DNA of 64,000 bases from the NCBI GenBank assembly GCA_965237955.1, contig OZ250169.1, forward strand, positions 7,168,001 through 7,232,000. Reading direction: 5' to 3'. Shown here one piece after another: positions 13,709-43,683 of this stretch. Made by a program: the position numbers and the translations under genes. How positions within the stretch are numbered: the first letter of the stretch is position 1; each line of letters starts with the position of its first letter. The notes below the pieces were generated by a model. It was not told where the DNA came from and searched no databases. It worked only from the letters and a program-made list of their open reading frames with translations. The DNA comes from Candidatus Marinacidobacterales bacterium (GTDB lineage: Bacteria > Acidobacteriota > Vicinamibacteria > Marinacidobacterales > SMYC01).

Positions 13709-13794
13709 GGGCGAAAGGCCTCCACGGGAAAAAGCAAAATTCTGTTGTTTTAGTTGTTTCGGAAGGCTTTTAGTATACCATGCGAAACTCGCTC

Positions 13795-14640
13795 ATGACG
13801 AAGACAACCCCTTTTGCCGGTTGTTTCGCGGACGACGACGAGTCTGAGTTGGTCTTTCTCGGCCTCGCCGACGACACACAGTCGAGGTACCTCGGCGGCT
13901 GCGCCGGCGGGCCGGCTGCGATCCGCAACGCCGACGACGGCAAATGTTTCAATGCCACCACCGAATCCGGCGTCGATCTCGAGCACGCGGTGAGCGATCT
14001 CGGAGACCGCTATCCCGGCGACAGTTGGGAGGCAAGCGCTCGCGATTACAAGGCGCAGGCGGAAGCGCTCTTCGAGGCTTCTAGAGTCCCGTTCATCGCT
14101 GGCGGCGACCACGCCGTCACCATCCCCGTCGTCGAAGCGCTAGTCCCCTGTATCAGAACAAACTAGATAAAACAGAGCTTGCCGAAACCCTTCTAAGTGC
14201 ATGAATCTTATGAATCTTATGGGCTGGCGAAAAGCCTAACTTTGTATAGTAATCAAAGATCCAGGGGACTAGAGGTGCTAGAACAACCGGTCCACGTCAT
14301 TCAGATCGACGCGCATCCCGACCTCTAACCCGAATTCGAAGGGAATCGGTTTTCGCACGCGTGTACCGGCGCTCGCATCCTGGAGATGGATCACATCGCC
14401 AGTCTCACCCAGCTCGGCATCCGGACGATGAATACGCAGAGTCCTTTTCTCGACCGCTACTCCGATCGCCTCATCATCCACGAGGCACGTGAGCTCCCCG
14501 CGGAGCTTCCGGAGCTCACCCACATTCCCGAAGACGCCTTGGTCTACATCACCATCGACATGGATGGATTCGACCCCGGGGTCTCCCACGCCGTCCCCGG
14601 AGGGTTGAGCTCGCGCCAAGTGCTCGACTTCATCCAGCTT
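13795..14640 (+). pseudogene. Arginase/agmatinase-family pseudogene
   Basis: GGDHAVT, IDAHPDL, SHA, TIDMDGFDP, PGGLS; MITE insertion, TAA at 14326, C-terminus missing. Confidence 0.85.
14144..14268. mobile_element. 125-bp AT-rich MITE-like element with CTAG TSD
   Basis: IRs TCCCCTGTATC and GATCCAGGGGA; CTAG at 14140-14143 and 14269-14272; removal restores EALEVLEQPVH. Confidence 0.8.
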
Positions 14641-16897
14641 AAGGTCGGTCTGACAAGACCAGCGCTGGGTCTCCCATCAGGTGGTAGATGCTCAGGAGCT
14701 CGTTGCGAGCTCCTGTCTCCGCGAATTGGATCTGAGCTTCGAGCAAGGCGTCTCCGAGACGCACGTGATTTCCGCGCACGAGCTCATGGACGATGGTCGA
14801 ATGAAAACGACTCGCGGGCTCATGCAAGCTGAGTCCACTCGGTGAAAACGTGGCGATCGCACCCTTCGCCTCAGCTTTGAGCAAGGCTTCACTCAGCGAA
14901 TCGAAAAAGGGAAAGTGAAAGTAGCCGTTGAGACAGTTCATCGTGAGCACGATCGGTTGTCGGGGTTGTGTGGAAAGCAAGCTCACGTCACGAGAGCGCA
15001 GCAGGTTCTCGTCAGCCCATAGATTGATCCCACCGTGCCCCAAGTAGCTGACCAGTGAGGCGCCCGAGTCGAAGGCGTCCAAAACGCGCGATCGCGTTTC
15101 CGATACACCAAGCTGGCTCAGATAGATCTTCTCGACCGACCGACCGCCAGAGATCGTTGCCGCAAGCGTGTCGGCATCACGCTCGAACTCACCCGCGCGA
15201 TCAGAATCGTCCGCGACGAGAACGATCGGGCCCTCGGAGTCGTCGACGCCGGCCTCGAAGGTAAGGATTTTCGTCACCATCGTGGCGAGCTCGGATACCG
15301 AAGCGGCCGGTAGGCGCCCGATTGCCAAATCAGGAAGCAGATCGTCACCGTTTATCGCAGCGTAAGCAGGATCCGACGCGGTCCAAAGAAATTCCGTTTT
15401 GACCATAAACGGTGGCAGCTGAAGACGTTTTCCACCTAGACGCAGATAGTCTTTGAAATCGTAGGTTCCGTCGCCGAGCAGCAGCACGTACCGAGGGGAC
15501 GGCGCCCGCCAGTGATGGTAGGCGTAGCTCAGGAACGATTGGATCGCGCTCGGCCGGGCTTCACCGAAGCCGAACTCGGAGTAAATCTCCTCGAGCGAGA
15601 CCCCCCGGACATCCAAACCTTGATTCTGTCGATGCGTCAGAAGAGGCCTAGCGGCAACGACGAGCTCGCTTGGACCGATGACGAGGTAGTCCGCATAGTT
15701 GAGGCTGTTCTTCAACCGGCTCACCACCGGTTCGCTGACCGCCGGCCTGGCCACCGCCTCTGGGCTCGACGCCACGTAGCGATGTCCCGCCCGAGCTCGA
15801 AACGCCGCGCCGTCAGCGCTATCTATCTTCAACCATCGCGGTGCGGCGTCCGTCGCGTCCACCACGTAGCTTCCCGTTCCGAGATTCGACAGGGTTGCTC
15901 GACCGCTCCCGTCGAAGCGTCCCTCGAACCGGCCCGCAACCGCTTCCAACTGTCGCGAGTACTCGAGCGCCCATCGGTCGACGAACACCATGGAGTACGC
16001 CGCTTCCGTGTCACCGACGTTCTCGATTTCGAGGACGTTCTCGCCATCACGCAACACGCCGGGCGGAACCTCGGCTTCCAGTTTACGGGGACGCTTCGCA
16101 TTCCAGCTGTCTTCACCTACGAGCGACCCATTCACCCAGACACGGACGTGGTGATCCGGGGACGCGGGAAAGTCGCTACCTCCTTGAAGCCACAAGCTCA
16201 AATGCGCCGCTTCCGCGCGTGCCGCGAGCCCCGAGATCGCGAACGGGAAACGCTTGCTGGCGCCTCCGAACACCGTGTCCCAGAGCCACGGGTCAACGGC
16301 GTCGACAAGAGTCGCCTGGTACAGACGATTCTCCTGTCGATCGATTCGGTGTCGGTACACGGAGACGGGACCTTCACCAACCCCCATCAACTCGACCGGC
16401 ATCCGTTGGCCCCGTACGCCGATCTCTAGCTCGTAGACGATCTCGTTCCCGTACGGATTGGCCGCCTCACCGTCCCCAAGAAAGAATAGAGTCGAACCGG
16501 GCCCGAAACGCCGGCGTTTGGGCTCGACGTGGAACGCCACGCTCTCACCTTGATGGCTCAACCGGAGGTTGGCCGTCGAGATGCCGCGTCGTCGGATTCC
16601 AGAGATGCCTTCGAAATCCACCGCGTGGAGCCCTCGCTCGCGCGTGGACAGGTGCGCTATCACCCTCTTGCGCTCGTGACTCGCGTCGTGCGCGTGCTGT
16701 CGAGCACCCCCACGACGTGTCGTCTCGAGAAGGCCCCCGCGAAATCGCAATCGAACGCGAAGGGTCCGGACCATCAGCAAGCGCTCCGTCTGCGGCTCCC
16801 ATCGCAGTGGCGCGAGCTCGACAAGCGCTCTTCGCGTGTCCCTCAGTTGAACCGCCCCGGCTTTTCCGGAGACTCCAACTCTTGAGAGGATGGAGTC

Positions 16898-18132
<1,235 letters not shown>

Positions 18133-21100
18133 AACAGTCTCCGGGATTCCCGGGGCGGTTCACAGTATAGCGATGTCGAGGATGCGGGACGCGTGAGAGG
18201 GCGATAGTCCATCGCCCGCAAAGGTCCGAGCGAGCCGCCTTCCCTGCTCTAGCCGCACCGTCCCGGAGGAAGCCGCGACGACCTCGGGCACCTCGGCCTC
18301 CGCTGGGCGCAACGAAAAACTCTCCACCTGGTTCGCCCGAATGGAAACGATCTCGACGTCGTTCGATGCGAGTGCGTCAACCCAAGCTCTTCTCACCGGG
18401 AGCGAGATCTCGTCGTCCATTGCAAAACCGGGAATCTCGACGCGCACCGAGCCGTCCTCGAGGGGCGTCGCGTTAAAACCTGAAACTCTGAGCTCGAGCT
18501 CGAGTTGCCGCCGGCCCCGCTGACGCACTGTCAAAGACGTGGCATTCGGATCTCCATAAACGACGCGCGGGGGGAGCGCCTCGCCATCCGTCCCCGGCAC
18601 AAAGGATTCCGGCGGCCGCGCGAGGCCACTTTGAGGTGTTGCCACGACCGGACCGTGGCGTTCGAGGCTTCCCGTTGTCTCGATATCTTCCAACTCGTAG
18701 AAATAGGACGTGCCGTTCGTTACGTCGCGATCGACGAAGCGGTAGCGCGCCCCCGACGGAGAGGAGCCCAAGCCCGGGATCAGCGAAGTGTTGATGCGCT
18801 CGAACGGTCCCGCCTCGCTCGCACTGCGGTACACGTGAAAGCCGAGGTTGTCGACTTCGGCGCCCGTCTCCCACTCGAGCACCACGGAGCTGTCACCGCC
18901 ATGGGCGTCGAACGATACGAGCTCGACCGCGGTTGTACACGCGACGATATTGTCGCTATCGGTATTCCGTACGACGAGGAGTTGATAACCGGAGATGGCA
19001 GCCGGGGTGACGGCCCTGCGAACGACGGCGCCGTCGAGAAACCGTACTTCGACGACGTAGGTACTGTTCGGGCCCCTCGACGAGCCGCACGTGAGCAGTC
19101 CCATGTGAACATACGCGGGGTCTTGCGATCCATGGCCTCGGCCACCGTTGACTTCGCGGACCCCCGAAACGGGGCTCAGCCCGCAGTCGAGCAAACGGAT
19201 CGTCGCGCCGATGGCATCACGGTCGGCCCCTCCCGCATCGTGCAGCGCCCGGATGACGAGATAGCCGTTGTTATTTGTCTCGTTACGCCACAGCTCGTTA
19301 GCCGTATTCTGGTTGATCAGGATGTCGACATCCCCGTCGCGATCGTAGTCGCCGAACGCCGTCGCTTCGCCATTGTCGACACCGAAACCTGCCGGCGAGA
19401 TGTCGGTGAACGTGAAGGCGCCGTCGTTCCGGAAAAGCTGGTCGTTCCCGTCGCTCGTGAGCATCAAATCGAGATCGCCGTCGTTATCGACGTCACCACA
19501 CGCGACGCCGTCGATGTTGCCGAGAATACCGGCCGGAACACCGCGAGCGGTGAACGACGCCGAACCGACACCCGTCTGTTCCCAGATCTGGCTGACACCT
19601 GCGTCTGTCCAGAAGAGATCGAAATCACCGTCGTCGTCGAGATCGCAGGTCGCGATACCGCCCTTGTTGCCGTTCGTAGCCGCTTCGTCGAAAGTCCCGG
19701 CGGTAAAGGTGCCGGCGTTCGCGTCGTTCAGATAGAGGTCTGGGGAGCTCCCGCGACGGTTGAGGATGTCGACGTCCCCGTCGACGTCGATATCGGCCAC
19801 CGCGGTGTAGTCGCTCTTTCCGGCTTGCGTCGCGGGAAGCGCGGGGGTGGCGACGTAGCTGAACGCTCCCGCCACGTTCTCGAAGATCGAGATGCCTCCG
19901 TCTTGATCCGCCATCAGATCCAGGTCACCGTCCGCATCGTAGTCGATGAACCCGAGTCCTTCCGAGTTGAACTGGAACGGTTGTGAGCTGGCATCGAGGA
20001 TCTGGCTCGGGGTGCCGCCGGCGCCGAAAATCGTCCAGGCGGCACCGCATCCGGACACGCCCGCGCCGTTGTTCAGGTAAATCTCGATGTCCGGCGAGCT
20101 CGTGTTGCGGGCAAAGTCCAAAAACCCGTCGTTGTTGACGTCGCCCCAAATGACGCTCCGCTCTCTCACATTGACGAGCCCGGGAGCAAGGCACGCGCTC
20201 ACATCGGTAAACGTTCCGTCGCAGCTTCCGCTGTTGTCCTGCATGTAGAGACGCGTCCCGAGCGTCGCGTCGTCAGTATTGACGAGAACATCCAAGCAAC
20301 CGTCGTTCTTGAAATCGCCCCACGCCAGTCCACCGTCCTTCGCTCCGGCGGTGTTCAATCCCGAAGGGGCGCTGACGTTCGTGAACGGCGCGGGTAGAGC
20401 GCCCTGCGCCCCCACGCAGATGAAGCTAGTGTTGGTGCAAGCGGCGTCCTTTGTAGGGATGTTCTGGTTGTTGAACGATGTCTGGATCCAGCCGTCGCTC
20501 CGGATGACTCGCGATAATCGAATCTCGTCGAGCAAACCGTCGAATCCGAAGTCGGCCGCGAGACGGTTGCCTAAATAGAACGAGTAGGCCGCGTCGGAAT
20601 CGGCGGGAAGCGTTCCGTTCCCGCTGGCTTGATAGGCAAGTTCCGCCCCGTTTTTGAAGATGCGGATGTTCGTGCCGATCTCGGAGCCGCCCCAGGTCAC
20701 CGTCACGTACTGCCACGCGCCGTAAGAAACGACATTGTTGTTGCTCACGCGTCTGACCGACGCCGAAGAGTAATTCTTGTTGAACTCGAACGCGTTGACC
20801 TCGGGCGCGGTGTTGTCGATCTCGAGAAACCACCGTCCCACGGAAGATGCTCCATACTTCGAGACGATATTCGCGGCGCTGTTGCCGCCAGCCGTCCGGG
20901 GCTGGATCCAAGCCGACATCGTCAACGGACCGAGGTCGTCCAAGATCGCGGCGGATCCAGCATCCACGAGATCGTCGATGCCATCGAAGTCGAGCGAGCC
21001 GCTGATCTTCCCAGCGACCTGGTCGCCGGTCGTCATCCCACCGCCGGAAGTCCCGTGATTTCCAAAGAACGAGCTGTCGGTGATCTGCGGTGCGGCGGTC

Positions 21101-21868
21101 GACGGGTCCTCGGCGAGATGCCACACGCCCGAGTAGTTGCGATCCCATAGGCTTTCCGGACTCTCCAGTGAGCAGGTGACCCCGGAGTCGCCATAATAAA
21201 TGTAGAAAACGGTATCGGCGTCGAATCGCAGTCTCGGAATACGAACCCAAGCGACCAGCGTCCCCGTCACCGCGTCGTAGCTTTCGATCTCGTGGCTCAG
21301 GATTTGAATGCCGTCTGCCGCTCGAAATTGGATGTCGAAACCGCTCGCGCTCGAGACGTTCGCCTGCAGATCCGGATCACTTTGCAAGCTAACGAGAACG
21401 GGAAGTCCAAAATGATCGGAGGCGCCGCTGACGCGGGTGTTGTCGATCGTAAGTTGCTTGCGGAACGCCATCGCGGCGTCGAGACGCACCGCTCCCAATA
21501 CGAACGAGGCCGTGATGATGGCAAGACGCAGATATGGCAGATATAAGGAGCCCATGGTATCCGTGTAGATATTGCAAACCGCATGCCTAGGGCATTACAC
21601 GCAGAGGCGTTTAAAAATGGGGGTTTTAACTCGTTGTACCCGATAACAGTTGGGGTGTTTGCGCTACGGTGTGTGGGGCTTTGGCTACGTAGGAGTCTTT
21701 TCTCTCACAAATTCCCCCGGCGCATTTCTTCGGCCAGATAGTCGGTCGAGCGCCACGAGAGCGCCAAGATAGAAAGCGTCGGGTTCGTCTCGGAAGCATT
21801 GGTAGAGGCGGAGCCGTCGACGCGTTTGAGTGCTTATCTTCGATTAATGGGACCAATGCGTTCCATGC

Positions 21869-22972
21869 TCATGTCGGGAGTATATCCTTTCGTCCACGCC
21901 ACCAAATTGACGCGATGGTCGTGATCGCGAGTGCCCAATACGGCCACAGGGGCTGGACGAAACCGCCGATGAGGGCGAGAAACGCCACGATGACGAGCAT
22001 GGCAAGCCTCACGAGGACGTACCGCGCGCGTGGCGACCACCACAGCACGACATCGAAAGGCACGAAAACCAACATGAGCTCGTTGACGCGTAGCTCGGGC
22101 CACGGCGACAAGATCGCCCCCCCACACACCAGAGCTCCCATGAGGGCGACGACACCAATCGCGAAGGCGGCTCCCCAGCGTGAAATCCACGCGAGTGCCG
22201 CGATCACGAGCACAAGAACCCAGAAGCGAACGAGCGCTGCGCCGACGTCAGCGGACACGGTCGGCCCCTGACGCTCGTAGACGCCCTCCGGTGCAACCCC
22301 GAACTCGTCAGTTACGGCTTCGGCGAGAACTTCGGGTATGAACATCGCCGCGTGAGCGTCGATATCTTGGTCGACCCACCGTCCGAGGATCAAATCGCCC
22401 GCCGGCACGAGCGCCCAGTGGAAAGCGGCGAACCCCGCGCGCGCGTGGTCGCGATACGTCCGCTGGCTCGGGATCGTCGAGCGCCGGAGTGCCCCATTGG
22501 CTGCTGTGTCGATGAGGTCGCGCGGGCGCGTGGAGCAATTATCGAGAAAGTGGCTGTAAATGTATTCGCGATTCTCGGGGAGAGCGTCGTTCTCGAGTGC
22601 TTCGACGAGGCTATCGATTTGCTCGTCCGAGAGCGGTAGCACTTGCCTGTAAATACTCCGGTCCTGGCTCTGGAACGCGATCACGAGGCTGACCCAATCC
22701 GATACCGAGACCCAGAACTTCGCGCGGCCGCGGACGACGTCCCATCCGAGCCCGAGCGGGCGCGAGAAATCTGCCGTGCCGTAGTTGTAGCAAAGGCCAC
22801 CGCCGGGAAGATCTTGGTCGACGACGCAGAGCGCAGCGTGTCCGAATTTCGAGAACAGGGCGTCCCCCGGCCCCATGGTGTAGAGCTCGACGCGAGGCTT
22901 GGCATCCGCTGGCGTTACTGCCGCCAGCAGCAGCACGAACACAAACAGGCTGAAATCGCGCCGAGCATACAC
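21869..22972 (-). CDS. DUF4105 / Lnb-like lipoprotein N-acyltransferase domain membrane protein
   Basis: FGHAAL, YNYG, DNCSTRPRD, C-terminal TM helices. Confidence 0.8.
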   Translation of the reverse strand: MYARRDFSLFVFVLLLAAVTPADAKPRVELYTMGPGDALFSKFGHAALCVVDQDLPGGGLCYNYGTADFSRPLGLGWDVVRGRAKFWVSVSDWVSLVIAFQSQDRSIYRQVLPLSDEQIDSLVEALENDALPENREYIYSHFLDNCSTRPRDLIDTAANGALRRSTIPSQRTYRDHARAGFAAFHWALVPAGDLILGRWVDQDIDAHAAMFIPEVLAEAVTDEFGVAPEGVYERQGPTVSADVGAALVRFWVLVLVIAALAWISRWGAAFAIGVVALMGALVCGGAILSPWPELRVNELMLVFVPFDVVLWWSPRARYVLVRLAMLVIVAFLALIGGFVQPLWPYWALAITTIASIWWRGRKDILPT

Positions 22973-35524: not shown

Positions 35525-38090
35525 GGCGACTCCGTTGCGCTCGTCGCCGTCGGAATAGGCTCCTTACCGCTCCGGTCGCGCAGCTTTTGTACGAGCACGA
35601 AGAACACGGGTATGAGGAAGACGCCGACAATCGTCGACACGATCATACCGCCGAACACCGCTGTCCCGAGCGCTCGCCGGCTCGCGGAGCCGGCGCCCGA
35701 GGCTACCAGAAGAGGCAGGACGCCGAAAATGAACGAGAACGCTGTCATGAGAAGCGGCCGGAATCGGAGACGAGCCGCTTCCACCGCGGCCTCGAGCGTC
35801 GGCTTGCCTTCATCACGGAGCTGCTTGGCGAACTCCACGATGAGGATCGCAGTTTTCGCCGAGAGACCGATGAGTAGCACCAGACCGATCTGTGTGTAGA
35901 CGTTGTTGTCGAGCGCTCTCAGCCAAGTCGCGAGAATCGCACCGAGGAGCGCGAACGGAATCGAGAGCAGTACAGCGAACGGAATGAGCCAGCTCTCGTA
36001 CTGCGCGGCCAGGAAGAGAAACACGAAGACGAACGCTAGGCCGAAAATCATCGGGGCCTTGATTGCCCGCGGCCAACTGCTGGTACGTAACCCCCGTCCA
36101 CTCGTACCCCATGGACGGGGGGAGGAGCCGCTCGGAAAGCTCCTCCATGGTTCGAACGGCCTCGCCCGAGCTGAACCCGGGCCGGGGAGCGCCGGTGATG
36201 CTTGCGGCTGGGTAGAGGTTGTAGCGGGTAATCGCTTGGGCCCCGACAGTGTTTTGAATACTCAAAAGCGTCCCGAGCGGGATCATGTTGCCCTGGGCGT
36301 CTCTCACTTCGAGCTGATTGATGTCTTCGACGCGTGAGCGGAACTCGGCATCCGCTTGGATCATGACGCGATACGTGCGTCCGAAGAGATTGAAATCGTT
36401 CACGTACGCCGAGCCGAGATACGCTTGCAGCGTGGCGAAGATATCCGAGAGCGGGATTCCGAGTGTTTTTGCCTTGGTGCGGTCGAGCTCCAGGTAGAGC
36501 TGGGGCACGTTCGCGCCGAAGCTGTTGTTCACGCGGGCAAGGTTCGGCTGCTGGTTCCCCTCGAAGGCGAGGTCATCGGCGATGGTTTGGAGCTGCTGCA
36601 CCCCGGCCGCCCCGCGATCTTGGAGCATGTACTCGAAGCCGCCCGCGCTCCCGAGGCCCTGGATGGGTGGAGGGATGAACGCAAACGACGTGCCCTCCTG
36701 AATCTGAAGGAGCTTCTGCGTCACCGCGTTCGCGATGGCGGTGGCATGCAGCTCGGCGCTCGGTCGATCGCTCCAGTTCTCGAGCACCGCGATGGCGGCG
36801 CCGCCGTTGCTGCTCTGGATCCCGTCGAGGAACGAGTAGCCGCCAATGGTGATGACGTCGGCGACGCCGGGCGTCTCCATCAGCGTCTGGGTTATTCCCT
36901 CGAGCACCTCCGCGGTGCGCTCGAGCGACGCACTATCGGGCAGCTTCACGTTAGCGTAGAAGTATCCCTGGTCTTCGTCGGGGATGAACCCCCCGGGAAC
37001 GACCATGAAACCGAATCCGGTCATGACGACGACCGCGACGAACAGGACCATCATGACGGCGACCCGACGCACGAATAGCTGGACGTAGCTCATGTAGGAC
37101 CTGGTCGTGCGATCGAAGATGTCGTTGAACTTGGTGAAAAACCAACCACGTTTCGCCGTCGACGACGGACGAAGCAGCATCCCGCAAAGAGCCGGACTCA
37201 GCGTCAACGCGTTGATCGACGAGAACACCGTAGCCACCGAGATGGTGATGGCGAACTGTGTGTAGAGGCGCCCGGTGATACCGCCCATCATCGCCGTGGG
37301 TACGAACACCGCAAGTAGCACTAGCGTCGTCGCGATGACGGGACCGGACACTTCATCCATCGCCTTCGCGGCGGCCTCCTTCGCGGAAAGCCCTTCGTCA
37401 TTGATGAGGCGCATCGTGTTCTCGACGACGACGATCGCGTCGTCCACGACAATACCTATGGCGAGCACCAGCCCGAACAGAGACAGCGTGTTGATCGATA
37501 GCCCCATCGCCAGCATCACGCCGAGGGTACCGAGAAGCGAGACCGGGATCGTGATCGACGGGATGAGCGTCGTCCTAAAATCCTGCAAAAAGACATAAAC
37601 CGTGAACACGACGAGAAGAACGGCGATGAACAGCGTCTCCACGACTTCCGCGATGGAAGCTTCGATCGAACGCGTCGAGTCGAAGGCGATCGTGTACTCG
37701 AGCCCGTCGGGAAACCGCGTCGCCATCTCGTCCATCGCTTCTCGGATGCCCGCAGCAATCTCGAGCGCGTTCGCGCCCGGAAGCTGATAGACCGCGAGCC
37801 CGATTGACGGCTTGCCGTTGAGCTGGACGAACCAGTTGTACGCCTGAGCTCCGAGCTCGACCCGAGCCACGTCGCGCACCCGCACGATGCGGCTCCCGTC
37901 GACTTTGAGGATCATGCTCTCGAACTCCTCGACGGTGGACAGGCGCCCGAGCGTGTTGACGGTGTACTGGAAGTCGAGTCCCATCGGAGCCGGGGGCGCT
38001 CCTATCTGTCCCGCGGCCACTTGCACGTTCTGCTCTCGAATGGCGGTTACTACGTCGTTGGTGGTGAGTCCGCGCGCCTTGAGCCGCTCT
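35521..38090 (-). pseudogene. HAE1 RND efflux permease, 5' part missing, frameshift near 36055
   Basis: [21 protein letters not shown]; begins abruptly at PERLKARGL. Confidence 0.88.
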
Positions 38091-40392
38091 GGCGGTGGAG
38101 CTCGCAGAGTTCCGCGCGGTCGGATTGGATAGCGCCGTCGAGGTTTCCTGGGAGACCGCGACCGAGCTCGACAACGTGGGCTTCCACCTCTTCCGCGCCA
38201 CATCGCCGTCCGGGCCCTACGTGCGCATTACCGGCCAACCGATCCCCGGCCTCGGAAGCTCGCCGGTGGGTGCGTCGTATCGATACGTCGATCGCGACGT
38301 CGTCAACGACATCACCTACTATTACGAGCTCGAGGACATCGACTCCGCGCGCACCGAGCGGCACGGTCCGGTGCACGCGGTCCCAACGAAAGTGGACACG
38401 CCGGAATCCGCCCCCGAACCCCCAGACGACACGACCCGCATCACCTACGGCACGCCCGAGAACAACTCCATCGAGGTCATCCGCCGAACCCGTGGCTACG
38501 TGATCGTCGAGCTCGTGACCGAAGGTTTCTACGCCGAGCCCGTCGAAGACGGCTCGGTGCGCATCATCGTCCCGGGATTCGAAGAGGCAGAAGCCGCGGC
38601 GCTCCCTGTCGAGCGTATCTTGCTCGACGCTGTCGCGGGCCGACGGGTCACGATCGGCAAGGCAAGAGCATCCGGTATCGCGACGTTCTCGGGATTGAGG
38701 CCCGCGGGGGCGTCCGTGCCTGACGTCGTTGCATCGCGGGACGGCACCGTGCGCGCCCGCAAGCGCCGCGCACGGCGAGCGCTCGCGTCGCGCGAGCTCG
38801 TTCCCGGCGAGTGGGCGCGCCTCGTCGACGTCGCCTATCAAGGCGAGGCCAAAAAGGCGCTCATCGAGCTCGCACCTGTGAGGTGGGATGGACCGAACGG
38901 CGAGCTTCTTGTCGCGAAGCGACTCAGGGTTCGCGTCAGCTTCCGCGGACGGGACGAGACGCGCCGGCGCACCGCCCGTCGTGGTGCCGTCGTGGCGCGG
39001 CTCGCTACCAGGGAACGCGGGATCTACGCCGTACGCTTCGAGGACGTCTTTGCGCGGCGGCGTCCCCGAACCGATCTGCGTTTGAGCCGCCAAGGTGCAA
39101 CCGTTCCGTTCCACATCGAGCCCCCGGGTCCGTTCCGTCCAGGCTCTGTCCTCTACTTCCTGAGCGATGGGGCGAACGCCAACCCCTACGGCCACGAGGC
39201 GGTGTACGAGCTCGAGGTCAGTAAGTCGGGTGAACGGATGCCGATGACCGATAGCGCTCCCGGTTCGACCGCACGCCACTATTGGACAACGGAGCGACGC
39301 GAAGAGAATCGCTACTACCAGGCCGCGCTCGTCGACGCGGAGGACCGATGGCTGTGGGATCTGCTCTTGGCCCCGGCGACGAAGTCGTACGAGTTCTCGG
39401 CGTCCGGACTCGCGCCGGGGAACGAGCCGAGCCGCGTGCGTGTGTGGCTTCAAGGAGCCACTCATTCATCTCACTCCGTCCGCTTGAGCGTGAACGGTGT
39501 CGCTCTAGCCGAGGCACGTTGGAACGGAAAGACGGCCCACCGGATCGATGCGGACATCCCGTCTGGAGCTCTCGACGAACACGCCAACCAGCTCGAGCTC
39601 CAAAACGATGCGAGCTTCTCGATGGTCATGCTGGATCGCTTCGAGGTGGACTATCCTGTAAGGCGTCGAAACGCGGCGCCGGTCGTGGTCCTCGATGTCA
39701 CCGACCACGCTCCGCGCTGGCTCGAGCCTCCCTTCCGCATCGAGGATGGGCGGCGCTACGAATGGCGACAGAACCGCTCTCGGCAGAGGTGCGACGGGCG
39801 CGGGACATGAAACGTTTTCTCAAGCGTCGCCGCGCCGAATGGATCCTGTTGGGACCACGGACGCTTCTCGACGCGGCGAAGCCACTCGTCGCGCACCGGC
39901 GGCGCCAAGGTCTCCGCACGAGGAGCGTTGCGCTCGAGGACGTCTACGAAGCGTTCGGACACGGCGAAACACCGCCAGGAGCGATCCGCGAGTTCTTACG
40001 TCATGCATACCATGAGTGGCGCGGTCTCCGGTACGTCGTGCTCCTCGGCGACGCAACCTTCGATTTCAAGGACCACCTCGGCACCGGCGTCCAAAACCAG
40101 GTACCACCTCTCATGGTGCGTACGAGCTATCTGTGGACCGCATCCGACCCTGCGTATGGCGCCGTCAACGGAGAGGATCTGCTTCCCGATATTGCCGTCG
40201 GTCGACTGCCGGCGGCATCACCAGAAAGAAGTCCTGACGATCGTCGAAAAGATTCTGGCGCATGAACGCGTCGCATCACACCCGGGGCCGGTCGTGCTCG
40301 TCGCCGACAACCCCGATCGCGCCGGCGACTTCGTCGCGCACGCGGAGGAGCTCTCGGCGAGCGTGCTCTATGGCTGGGAACAAAAGAAAATC

Positions 40393-41776
40393 GGGTCTAC
40401 GCGGGTTCGTGTGGGTTGAAAACGGCATTTCTGGGTAATGGCGGAAGGAATGCCGCCACGATCTTCAGCTTGAGATATCCCTCGTCACGATAGCCGTAGG
40501 CGCGTCGTTGCAGAACACGGATTTTGTTGTTGACCCCTTCAACCAGTCCGAGACTGACTTTGTTCTCAGGATGACAGTAGGAGGCGATACCATCCCAATG
40601 GGACTCAATCATTCCGGCGAACTTCTGGTAGGGATGCAGGCGCTGCCATTTGAGGCTGTCTTTCCAACGTGTGAAAAAGGCGCGAGCCCCGCGTTCGGTG
40701 CGGTAATCCCAGAGTTGCCCGAAGGCCTCCTTCAAAACATAGGCGGTGTTCAGGCGCCGGTTGGCCTGGAGCAACTTCTTGAGTGCGCGGCGACCGTCCA
40801 GGCTCAGGTTCTCCCGCCGGGAAAGCAACGTGTAACGCTGCCCCTTGATATACGACCGGTCCTCGCCGCTGAGGCGTTTGTACTCACGGCGCCGGACCTC
40901 ATCGAGAGCCTTTGACAGGTGACGCATGATATGAAACTTGTCGAAGATGATCCGCGCATTGGGTGCGTTGTTAATCACCGAGTTCCGGAAGGGCTTCCAC
41001 ATATCCATGGCGGCCAGCTTGATACGGGCGCTTTTCTTCCCGCCCAGCGCCTTGAAGAACAAATCGATGTCGGTTTCTTTGCGACCCTCACCGCCCACCC
41101 AGATGGGACGCGCCCGCTCCAGGTCGCTGACAATGACACGATAGTTATGTCCCTTGCGGATGGAGATCTCATCGATACCGATGGCCCGAGGCGCCGGCAG
41201 CCCCGCCCGCTCGACTTGCTCTTGCATGTAGAGCTTATCCAGGTCCTTCACCGTAGTGTGGTGCAGACGTTCCATCTCGGCCACCGCCTTGTTCGGCATA
41301 TCCCGGCACAGCTTGCCCACATGCGTCGCAAAGCGCTGGGTGTAGCGCGGGTTGTTCGCCAGCCAGTCCAAGTGTTCTACATGCACACCACCGCACCCAC
41401 GACAGTTGACGCGCCAACGCTCGTATTCCAGATAGATCCGCCAGCCTGCCAACGACAGGTCGCGGACCCGGCACACTTGCTTGTCATAGCGCCCCCGGCA
41501 CCGATGCCCACAGTACGAGCACACGGCTGTTTTTTTCGCCTCTTGAGCTGGATGACGCGGGCGTATCGGTCACCGAATACACCGTTCAATCGGGCGCCAG
41601 CCACGAAACCTGGTAGCGCAAAAAGCGAGCGGATCGACTGGGGATTTTTCACTCGGTTAGCCTATCCTAAAAACGGATCACTTCTCAGCACCTGATGAAG
41701 TGCTGAATACCTTTTCCACACAATGAGTTACACTATTTCTCCGTCAGCATTCGCCCACAGATTTCCGCGTAGACCC
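40393..41776 (-). mobile_element. ISL3-family IS, TSD AGAAAATC
   Basis: IRs GGGTCTACGCGG and CCGCGTAGACCC; TSD at 40385-40392 and 41777-41784. Confidence 0.93.
40397..41652 (-). CDS. ISL3 transposase in two frames joined at an A7C slippery site near 41530
   Basis: CSYCG zinc finger, IGIDE, MDMW, FDKFH, EGVNNKI. Confidence 0.88.
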
Positions 41777-42408
41777 AGAAAATCTATCTCACCGAGCAGT
41801 CACCAGCGGAAGCCCGCGCGGCCATCGTCGATGCGTTCGGTGCCGAGGCGTCGCTCGTGAGCTACATCGGTCATGGCGCGATCCACTTCTGGGCTGACGA
41901 GAACATCTTCAATAGCGGCGACGTCGCGACGCTCGGCGAGCGCGACCGCCTTCCGCTTCTGCTGACGATGAACTGCCTGAACGGATACTTTCACTTCCCG
42001 TACTTCGATTCCCTGAGCGAGTCGCTTCTAAAGGCCGATGGCCGTGGAGTCGTGGCCGCTTTCTCCCCCACGGGCCTGAGCCTCGAAGACCCGGCGCACG
42101 TGTATCATCGCGCACTTCTCGAGGAGCTCATGAGCGGCCAGCACGAGAGACTCGGAGATGCCATCCTCGCTGCGCAGAGCGTGTATGCGAAAAGTGGCGA
42201 GCTCCCCGAGCTTCTGAGCATTTATCATTTACTCGGCGATCCGGCTCTCGTCATAGAGACCCGCTAGCGCCCGTACTGTACTTCTAGATCCAAGCCAGCA
42301 AGATTCTCCTCCTCACGCGCAGATGCCATTCGTCCATGAAAGGATTATGTCCTTTCTAGTTGCAGTCCTATCTGACCGAAGGACGCAGTAAACTAACTTG
42401 GCATCTTC

Positions 42409-43683
42409 ATGTATCGTTTTTTCGTTTTGGTCGCGACTCTGTCGATCGCACTTCCGTCGTTCGCTCAGGAGACGCGGCAGGAGCTCCTGCGGGAACAGCG
42501 CGAAGAAAAGCGAGCGCACGTCGAACCCTACAAACTCAACCGCGTCGAAGAACAGATGGTTCGATTCGACAAGGCAGAGTCGCCGACGATCGCCGATCGG
42601 AATTGGAAGGGCTTCTATCCCCGCATTGCTTGGCCGGCTCGGGGCTCGGGCGCGGCGCTCGGGTTCCGGTACTGGCAGCGTGATTTTTGGGGGCGCATCG
42701 ACGCGGCAGGTGCAGCATTCTATTCGCTGAAAAGCTATCAACATTATGACGTTCAGCTCGGGCTCATCCCTCACGTGGGACGGCGCATTCCGCAGAAGTC
42801 TTGGAGGGGGGACGATGTCTACGAGCTCGCGAGCACGCAGCCGGGCTTTGCGCGCATTCCGTTCTACATGACGCTCCGCTATCGCTACCTTCCACAGGAG
42901 GACTTCTACGGGCTCGGACCGGACTCAGAGCTCGAGAATCGGACGGCCTATCTCCAGGAGGAGGGCCGTCTTTATTTCACGACCGGATATCAGTTCACCA
43001 GTCACTTCGTTTGGCTTCTCAACGGCGGTTACCAACGGAACGAGATCAGAGCGGGCAAGTCGAGCACTTTCCCGAGCACCGAGGAAGTCTTCGACGATAT
43101 GACAGCGCCGGGCTTGGCGAGTCCTCCGAACTACGTTCGTTGGGGCACCCAGTTCTTCGTCGACTACCGGGACGAACCCGGAAACCCTCACAGGGGATTC
43201 ATGGTCGCGCTCGCGTACGCGCGGTTCGATGACCGAACCGAGGACAGTTTCAGCTTCGACCGCTATGGTCTCGACGCGCGCGCGTTCGTCCCGCTGGGCT
43301 CACCCCAGCGCGTCCTCGCCCTTCGAAGCGCGTTCCTCATCGACGAGGCTGACAGCGGAAACGTGGTGCCGTTTTTCATGCAACGCTCGCTCGGTGGAAG
43401 CCATACGCTTCGCGGATTCGACAGCTTCCGATGGCGCGGCGCCAGGGTCATGCTGTACCAAGCCGAGTACCGCTGGGAGCCGCTTTCGTTTTGGGACCTC
43501 AACATCTTCGTAGATGCCGGCGCAGTGGGCGGGCCGGTCGAGAGCTTGAGCTTCGACAACCTCGAAGTGGACTGGGGGTTCGGCAGCCGCTTCAAAACGT
43601 ACCGCGACATCGTCGTGCGGTTCGAGATTGCGTTCAGCAACGAAACGACTCGTTACTACCTTCGCGGGTCGACATCGTTCTAG
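42409..43683 (+). CDS. Omp85 (BamA/TamA-like) outer-membrane barrel protein
   Basis: Signal peptide, LGG..LRGF motif, FVDAG, C-terminal Phe. Confidence 0.8.
   Translation: MYRFFVLVATLSIALPSFAQETRQELLREQREEKRAHVEPYKLNRVEEQMVRFDKAESPTIADRNWKGFYPRIAWPARGSGAALGFRYWQRDFWGRIDAAGAAFYSLKSYQHYDVQLGLIPHVGRRIPQKSWRGDDVYELASTQPGFARIPFYMTLRYRYLPQEDFYGLGPDSELENRTAYLQEEGRLYFTTGYQFTSHFVWLLNGGYQRNEIRAGKSSTFPSTEEVFDDMTAPGLASPPNYVRWGTQFFVDYRDEPGNPHRGFMVALAYARFDDRTEDSFSFDRYGLDARAFVPLGSPQRVLALRSAFLIDEADSGNVVPFFMQRSLGGSHTLRGFDSFRWRGARVMLYQAEYRWEPLSFWDLNIFVDAGAVGGPVESLSFDNLEVDWGFGSRFKTYRDIVVRFEIAFSNETTRYYLRGSTSF

Follow-up and report, generated by a model that had tools for sequence, protein, structure and literature searches.

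The closest described relatives of the proteins studied here are PorU (PG0026; structure 6za2; profile NF033707), the C-terminal signal peptidase and sortase of the Bacteroidota type IX secretion system (T9SS), and the gingipains RgpB and Kgp, which are also C25 peptidases. Gingipains place their prodomain and catalytic domain first, and their adhesins and C-terminal domain (CTD) last. To our knowledge, PorU-type chemistry has been described solely within the T9SS attachment complex, where it acts in trans. The present analysis concerns a gene family with two copies in the window, i.e., the whole stretch of 64,000 nucleotides at positions 7,168,001 to 7,232,000 of contig OZ250169.1 from a Candidatus Marinacidobacterales bacterium (Acidobacteriota). 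The original prediction, made from this sequence, had proposed a self-processing surface-protein system, in which a cargo is followed by a module that opens at TAVEL and ends in a C25 peptidase. This interpretation is partly supported, and the family is a variant of PorU-type processing that is widespread, has apparently not been described, and occurs in the window as a broken copy.

The sites mapped for PorU follow the pattern X/(GSA)(VLI), with Thr as P1 in nine of the 17 listed, and the Porphyromonas protein PG1427 is cut at T/AVE, according to Table 2 and the Discussion of PMC4560394. The specificity of the enzyme is called low in PMC5445135. PMC11285876 states that a T9SS CTD must sit near the C-terminus, and presents PorU signal recognition as not pinned down in published work.

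The fusion architecture is real and is found in intact relatives of the window copies: a signal-peptide-like start is followed by a variable cargo, a Thr-x-Val motif, the FnIII-fold domain that this motif opens (hereafter the TAV domain), an optional prodomain, and a PorU-like body. Matches to C25 were found in 21 of 31 related genomes, with at most 20 per genome and open frames of up to 6188 residues. Forty regions around the longer frames were fetched, and when the final 1120 residues of 41 frames were aligned, conservation set in abruptly at T-A-V (alignments A1-A3 leave out L047, L051, L025, L056 and L058). A database search, in which 7985 candidates were scored, yielded 302 longer homologs, and the 120 listed ones were analysed. 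Each of these listed homologs has one TAV domain, located 964-1015 residues from the chain end, with Thr in 118 of them and Val at +2 in all 120. Pairwise identity is 0.97 at the Thr, compared with 0.11-0.37 over the 30 preceding positions; this is the sharp boundary at TAVEL that the original prediction had anticipated. Its expectation of variable N-termini is borne out as well, given that the N-termini of the listed homologs form 31 clusters and that their last cargo domains belong to 11 classes. Cargo types among 22 scanned proteins include beta-helices, LamG, DUF11, SdrD-B, LTD and DUF5122 propellers, among others. When the 11 cargo classes are mapped onto a FastTree tree of the module, 40 changes are needed; the minimum is 10, and shuffling gives a mean of 59. 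The agreement between cargo and module tree is thus loose, in line with repeated swapping, with the caveat that the number of changes is inflated by errors in the tree.

For 98 of the 115 TAV hits in the 31 genomes, a listed C25 match lies at most 6 kb downstream. The other 17 comprise eight near contig ends, eight that were fetched, and one that was left out; those fetched correspond to four broken copies, three orthologs ending after the prodomain, and one unrelated FnIII protein. Nearly every TAV domain in this order has its own peptidase.

The module's anatomy was examined on a predicted model of the 1000-residue module of an ortholog, with a predicted local distance difference test (pLDDT) score of 87 and a predicted template modelling score of 0.82. 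Residues 1-100 form an FnIII-type sandwich (pLDDT 89.6 for the TAV domain). In a structure search with this domain, FnIII domains fill the top 50 rows (e.g., 3mpc, with Z 10.4 and a root mean square deviation (rmsd) of 2.2 over 89 aligned residues), and no CTD chain appears among these 50 matches. Residues 128-303 align with the Kgp prodomain 5mun (Z 12.0, rmsd 3.3, 164 aligned), residues 313-1000 with residues 27-789 of PorU 6za2 (Z 22.9, rmsd 6.0, 572 aligned), and residues 651-1000 with RgpB 4ief (Z 41.2, rmsd 2.2, 320 aligned), the last being a clan CD fold. The structural comparison with PorU and RgpB that had been recommended with the original prediction hence places the body on PorU and the gingipains. 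PorU is both the top Foldseek match and the top sequence match of the module, and NF033707 matches over positions ~103-732, in those 10 of the 11 scanned proteins which hold the body at 192-232 bits against a cut-off of 420. PorU-type N-terminal domains ahead of the catalytic domain are evident from both the NF033707 span and the alignment to 6za2. Because the match to PorU extends beyond the catalytic domain, the body is PorU-like, and not that of a plain gingipain. The His and Cys of the catalytic pair are present in 201 of 202 full-module proteins. In 119 of the 120 listed homologs, 8-18 residues separate the last GDP motif from the C-terminus, and there are neither C-terminal PorU domains nor a CTD. 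A shorter subfamily, with a module of ~810-860 residues, has no prodomain. For the prodomain, a pseudo-substrate hairpin with the conserved sequence 'ASxxGTVR' was considered and dropped, its pattern matching only 43 of the 202 proteins.

In comparison with PorU, the family shares the C25 His-Cys pair and the upstream PorU domains, and its proposed site, T/AVE, is identical to one mapped PorU site. It differs in that the substrate signal and cargo are fused ahead of the enzyme, in the missing C-terminal PorU domains and CTD, in scoring below the NF033707 cut-off, in having Gly for PorU's Arg722, in that no PorV was found, in the prodomain of one subfamily, and in the many copies per genome. 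The family is one of C25 peptidases, PorU-like in proposed action, which falls outside PorU on score, CTD, Arg and partners. With the gingipains (1cvr, 4ief, 4rbm, 5mun) it shares the catalytic fold (Z 37-41) and the prodomain fold (Z 12), yet the order is different: cargo, TAV, prodomain, PorU-type domains, C25, end. The TAV domain resembles the T9SS type A CTD (TIGR04183/PF18962) in being a beta-sandwich of ~100 residues right after a Thr-small-hydrophobic site, and TAV-related domains stand before such CTDs in some proteins. It differs in its internal position and in its best structural matches, which are FnIII domains, and TIGR04183/PF18962 had no match in the window proteins or in 22 homologs. 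Sortase A, which acts on LPXTG signals (C60), cuts after Thr and then transfers the acyl group, as described in PMC4560394; the same is only proposed for the present family. The sortase has an unrelated fold and is a separate membrane protein, whose signal is a motif plus a transmembrane tail.

Several observations point to the Thr as a candidate cut site. Both the window gene and 91 of the 120 listed homologs conform to the X/(GSA)(VLI) pattern. Among 50 cargo-bearing fusions, the Thr motif was found in 47 by pattern and in 49 by eye (of the three pattern misses, one failed parsing and one missed the pattern, and both carry the Thr by eye), and it was also found in four of five cargo genes adjoining a stand-alone C25 gene. 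Conversely, it was found in one of 14 cargo-less fusions, where the domain directly follows the signal peptide, and in none of three orthologs (read by eye) that keep the cargo and the domain but have lost the peptidase body. Genome G163 has both situations: a cargo form with the Thr (L128) and a cargo-less form without it (L143). A residue with a purely structural role would hardly be expected to depend both on a preceding cargo and on a following enzyme. Ahead of position -1, the chain is disordered in the TAV model (pLDDT <50), as is expected of an accessible cut site. The Thr codons vary synonymously (ACG 14, ACC 12 and ACA 1, n=27), so the constraint acts on the protein; a DNA recombination site at the module boundary was rejected on this basis. 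A predicted complex of the TAV domain with the peptidase body scored 0.31 against a mark of 0.32, the controls not being folded, and is used as evidence neither way.

These counts bear on a reading in which nothing is cut, and the proteins are surface proteases aimed by N-terminal binding domains, in a reversed gingipain layout, with the Thr as a structural or glycosylation site. Gingipains are generally known to pair C25 with adhesin domains, the catalytic domain is structurally closest to RgpB, and the P1' residue varies widely, all of which suits this reading. However, a structural Thr should survive in the cargo-less versions, which it does in a single case, and it should not disappear along with the peptidase in the three orthologs; moreover, the same Thr-led domain ends cargo proteins encoded beside stand-alone C25 genes. 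We consider this explanation quite improbable.

The Thr could instead be the nucleophile of an enzyme-independent N-to-O acyl shift, with the cut falling before it, as in CwpV, GAIN and SEA domains. An almost invariant Thr that opens the domain would suit such chemistry, as would the residue at -1, which is small (T, P, A or V) in all 120 listed homologs, and CwpV is described as cleaving through Thr-413 (PMC3256870). Against this stand the loss of the Thr along with the peptidase body and the need to find another role for the His-Cys pair, while the Pro found at P1' in some sites suits neither route well. The chances of this explanation appear very slim.

The mechanism that we favour is modelled on PorU. 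One chain, made of a variable cargo, a Thr-led FnIII domain and a PorU-like C25 peptidase, would be exported and then fold; export is predicted to proceed via Sec, from N-termini read by eye. The prodomain, where present, would be relieved, and the Cys would attack the bond just after Thr in the same chain. The acyl-enzyme would then be resolved either by an envelope amine, leaving the cargo attached as with PorU, or by water, releasing it. That the chain is cut after Thr by its own peptidase, and that the cargo C-terminus is then passed to an envelope amine or released, we hold to be somewhat better than an even bet. By analogy with PorU, self-cleavage after Thr would probably involve transpeptidation to an envelope acceptor. 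Self-processing at the Thr as such, taken across the three leading readings, is likely, while the version in which anchoring occurs strictly in cis is put forward tentatively.

A number of points weigh against the favoured mechanism. It is proposed from sequence, models and the PorU analogy. PorU Arg722, which lies 32 residues past the Cys and has been proposed as a sortase hallmark, corresponds to Gly in every one of the 120 listed homologs. There is no anchor after the peptidase, nor any conserved neighbour pointing to an acceptor or exporter; at 36 loci, no conserved neighbour genes were found except other cargo fragments and the synteny among three close orthologs. Given the missing Arg and the absence of any neighbour that points to an acceptor, resolution of the acyl-enzyme is the weakest step. 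One protein, P0354, has lost the Cys and retained the Thr. P1' is Ala or Ser in 91 and Glu in 22 of the listed homologs, and distant members have Leu, Arg, Phe, Val, Tyr, Pro or Lys. Finally, the 14 cargo-less proteins come from one family, with 11 genomes and three groups on the FastTree tree, and the three orthologs without a peptidase represent one event; the Thr controls therefore amount to approximately two to four independent losses.

Some of these points can be read in favour of release only, in which self-cleavage at the Thr does no more than set the parts free. The module would then serve as a carrier or for maturation, and the cargo or the peptidase, once free, would act alone, with no anchoring. 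The change of Arg722 to Gly is in line with it, as are the gingipain-type prodomain in the window's subfamily and the fact that no partner of the anionic lipopolysaccharide type, such as PorV, was found in the 31 genomes. Nevertheless, the PorU-type domains (model residues 313-650) are retained in all fusions examined, with no obvious need for them in a release protease, and many cargos are adhesin- or lectin-like, which suits surface display. Release without anchoring is judged unlikely.

A search for T9SS core genes had also been recommended with the original prediction. PorV was found in none of the 31 genomes, with its positive control detected; SprA, GldN, PorP and GldM were not found in the one genome searched, that of the window (G000), in searches where no positive control rose above the cut-off. 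The same genome has two secretins and four weak Por_Secre_tail matches (best E 4e-6), three of them in frames of ~1040 residues.

The architecture recurs elsewhere in the phylum. A match to the PorU-like body was obtained in 101 of the 251 genomes sampled from it, three candidates being scored per genome, and 40 regions were taken from the 157 matches according to score and frame length. The long frames among them again read cargo, Thr-led domain, body and end. Taken together with the closer relatives, the fusion is present in 16 Acidobacteriota families. A library search added three more fusions (P0033, P0038 and P0055), one of them labelled Dehalococcoidales and located on a 5.5-kb contig. 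The phylum also has a split form, in which a stand-alone C25 gene without TAV domain lies beside cargo genes ending in a TAV domain (L132, L147, L148 and L150). On a C25 tree (FastTree, midpoint root) the fused forms group separately from the stand-alone enzymes with a support of 0.92, which is weak evidence.

The split form suggests a further alternative, in which the fusion ensures a matched supply of enzyme and the peptidase of one molecule processes the TAV site of another. It is favoured not only by this separation of the enzyme from TAV-bearing cargo, but also by the trans action of PorU itself and by the 10-17 TAV-domain matches of some genomes. If this were the rule, however, peptidase-free cargos should pile up, and a single orthologous set of three is seen in the 31 genomes, with the Thr lost. 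We regard a cut in trans as very improbable.

If the favoured mechanism is extended to the phylum, a one-gene display system across Acidobacteriota might be envisaged, in which the chain would cut itself after Thr and have its cargo ligated to the envelope, needing neither a T9SS nor a separate sortase; this remains speculative, with the odds somewhat against it. Much the same applies to the other elements of that display system, namely that cargo would be swapped freely ahead of the Thr and that the same FnIII signal would serve a stand-alone C25 enzyme elsewhere. No description of a cargo-TAV-C25 fusion was found in the literature searched, most subscription papers being outside the search. 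If the proposal is true, sortase-like processing would also operate in a major phylum of soils and the sea that has no T9SS, and it would account for many unannotated giant 'C25 family' proteins of Acidobacteriota. The family offers a single-chain system for studying signal recognition by C25 transpeptidases, and a self-cleaving, self-ligating tag that tolerates cargos of a few hundred to >5000 residues could, in the same case, be a tool for protein engineering.

Related domains occur in other arrangements. At E <= 0.001, the TAV profile finds 46,682 cluster representatives, generic FnIII repeats accounting for many of them. A TAV-related domain precedes Por_Secre_tail/FlgD-Ig tails in P0005, P0021, P0032 and P0074, in agreement with the original prediction, which had pointed to a similar domain ahead of type IX signals. 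In an atlas search, the nearest clusters are unnamed (0.93-0.95) and a Por_Secre_tail cluster follows at 0.84, which is treated as a lead only. P0013 and P0050 have the reverse order, with the C25 body followed by one or more TAV-like domains, which may be compared with PorU and its own CTD.

Within the window, the module common to both loci, from (T)AVELxxF..WET to the C25 domain, is as originally described: PF01364 matches both copies, the GHG and NC catalytic motifs are intact in both, and the pieces of copy 1 and copy 2 are 39-58% identical. The features of both copies are presented in Table 1.

Table 1. Features of the two module copies in the window, in window coordinates.
Feature	Position	Strand	Remarks
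Copy 1, 5' half	18163..21555	-	1131 codons; stop 18160-18162 comes from the end of the insertion sequence (IS)
Signal-peptide-like N-terminus	21472..21555	-	Judged by eye; ortholog homology begins at residue 25
Cargo: DUF2341 (residues 72-127) and LamG-3, lectin-like (residues 194-357)	20485..21342	-	Pfam E 2e-7 and 2e-15
Cargo: FG-GAP repeats (five stretches, outer limits approximate) and ASPIC/UnbV-like domain	19030..20394	-	PF13517 E 1e-28
Thr875, first residue of the module, proposed P1	18931..18933	-	Thr in 118/120 listed homologs
TAV domain, ~100 residues, FnIII-type beta-sandwich	18634..18933	-	Model of the ortholog's domain
Gingipain-type prodomain, portion ahead of the IS	18163..18558	-	Ortholog model vs Kgp prodomain 5mun; profile E 0.0035
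IS3-family element, 1315 bp, terminal inverted repeats	16848..18162	+	Transposase frames orfA 16898-17218 and orfB 17215-18132
Copy 1, 3' half: prodomain end, PorU-like N-terminal domains (including a CBM-like jelly roll), C25	14639..16847	-	
C25 catalytic domain	14654..15688	-	His codon 15035-15037, Cys codon 14933-14935
Copy 2, decayed	38092..42267	+	Starts at AVEL; no Thr, no cargo; His 41872, Cys 41974
ISL3-family element within the copy 2 C25 domain	40393..41776	-	

Copy 1 had been taken for a single gene spanning 14639-21555. Its cargo-TAVEL-C25 architecture holds, but the span consists of two open reading frames (ORFs), 18160-21555 (1131 residues) and 14639-16780 (713 residues), split by the IS3-family element, which is flanked by a 4-bp target duplication. 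With the IS discounted, the halves are in frame and total 1865 codons. An intact ortholog of 1881 residues (P0151), from a genome in the same family, shares 69% identity with the 5' half over 1122 residues. Short-read contigs of runs X1 and X2, from two studies (one run possibly being the window's source), stop ~25-30 bases inside the element on both sides; since they run into it from either side, the insertion is real and not an assembly artefact. No IS-free contig joining the halves was found among the joints listed, with 10 further joints beyond them, and no RNA dataset with the gene was listed. Eight further full-length copies of the element, at >=99% identity, are located elsewhere in the genome. 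The cargo had been described as lectin/adhesin-like, and LamG-3 and FG-GAP were indeed found; it also includes DUF2341 and a weak ASPIC/UnbV match (PF07593, E 7e-4), which is below its cut-off here and above it in the ortholog. PF01364 matches 14642-16780 with E 7e-76 and 256 bits (cut-off 23), which assigns it to peptidase family C25, and NF033707 matches the 3' half over positions 155-733 with 204 bits, its cut-off being 420.

Copy 2 presents two frame changes, near 39760-39830 and 40220, and its PF01364 match is in two pieces (E 4e-30 and 3e-24). Given that it has no cargo, the window pair alone cannot demonstrate different cargos on the same module; the relatives do. A 5'-truncated AcrB-type efflux gene (35813-38091, minus strand) abuts copy 2, the junction falling within the would-be Thr codon of TAVEL. 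This break is a single event and may be due to chance. An Omp85-superfamily gene (42409-43683, plus strand) immediately follows copy 2 and was not seen as a conserved neighbour.

The original prediction had missed that both copies are broken, as are all seven TAV-bearing copies in G000. This genome, of 8.13 Mb and with a completeness of 98% by markers, contains 14 C25 matches and seven TAV domains, every one of them within genes of the cargo-TAV-C25 type. None of the seven reads through from cargo to peptidase, the others being fragments, and the mechanism therefore has to be read from relatives. The family is in decay in G000, and the window copies are dead genes. Its IS load is very high, IS3 and ISL3 copies numbering in the dozens, and many genes near the C25 loci are split. 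This resembles a genome undergoing decay, and some of the frameshifts may be assembly errors.

Some relatives have unusual arrangements. Region G025:C1:596000-672000 (L023-L026) harbours six or more giant genes of the cargo-TAV-C25 type in tandem; their frames span 1857-6188 residues, and one of these genes is frameshifted within the TAV domain. The three orthologs without a peptidase (L074:4212-6605, L075:3-2216 and L076:4866-7205) consist of a cargo, a degenerate TAV domain and a prodomain, and their free prodomain could be a putative inhibitor of the family's peptidases. The cargo-less proteins of family f41 (L133-L145) consist of a signal peptide, a Thr-less TAV-like domain and the PorU-like body. 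In the split form, a short repeat follows the TAV or C25 domain at the chain end in cargo genes and in one stand-alone C25 gene (L147:1084-4479, L148:4288-5928 and L150:6454-9609). This repeat may be dockerin-like, which would suggest an extra docking step.

Directly upstream of copy 1, on the same strand, lies a gene for an Lnb_N (DUF4105) membrane protein (21869-22972, minus strand), which was not seen as a conserved neighbour. At the other end, an arginase-family gene in two ORFs (13780-14832, plus strand) is convergent with copy 1 and overlaps its end, and the read contigs carry variant alleles of this gene, with small insertions at 14435 and 14495.

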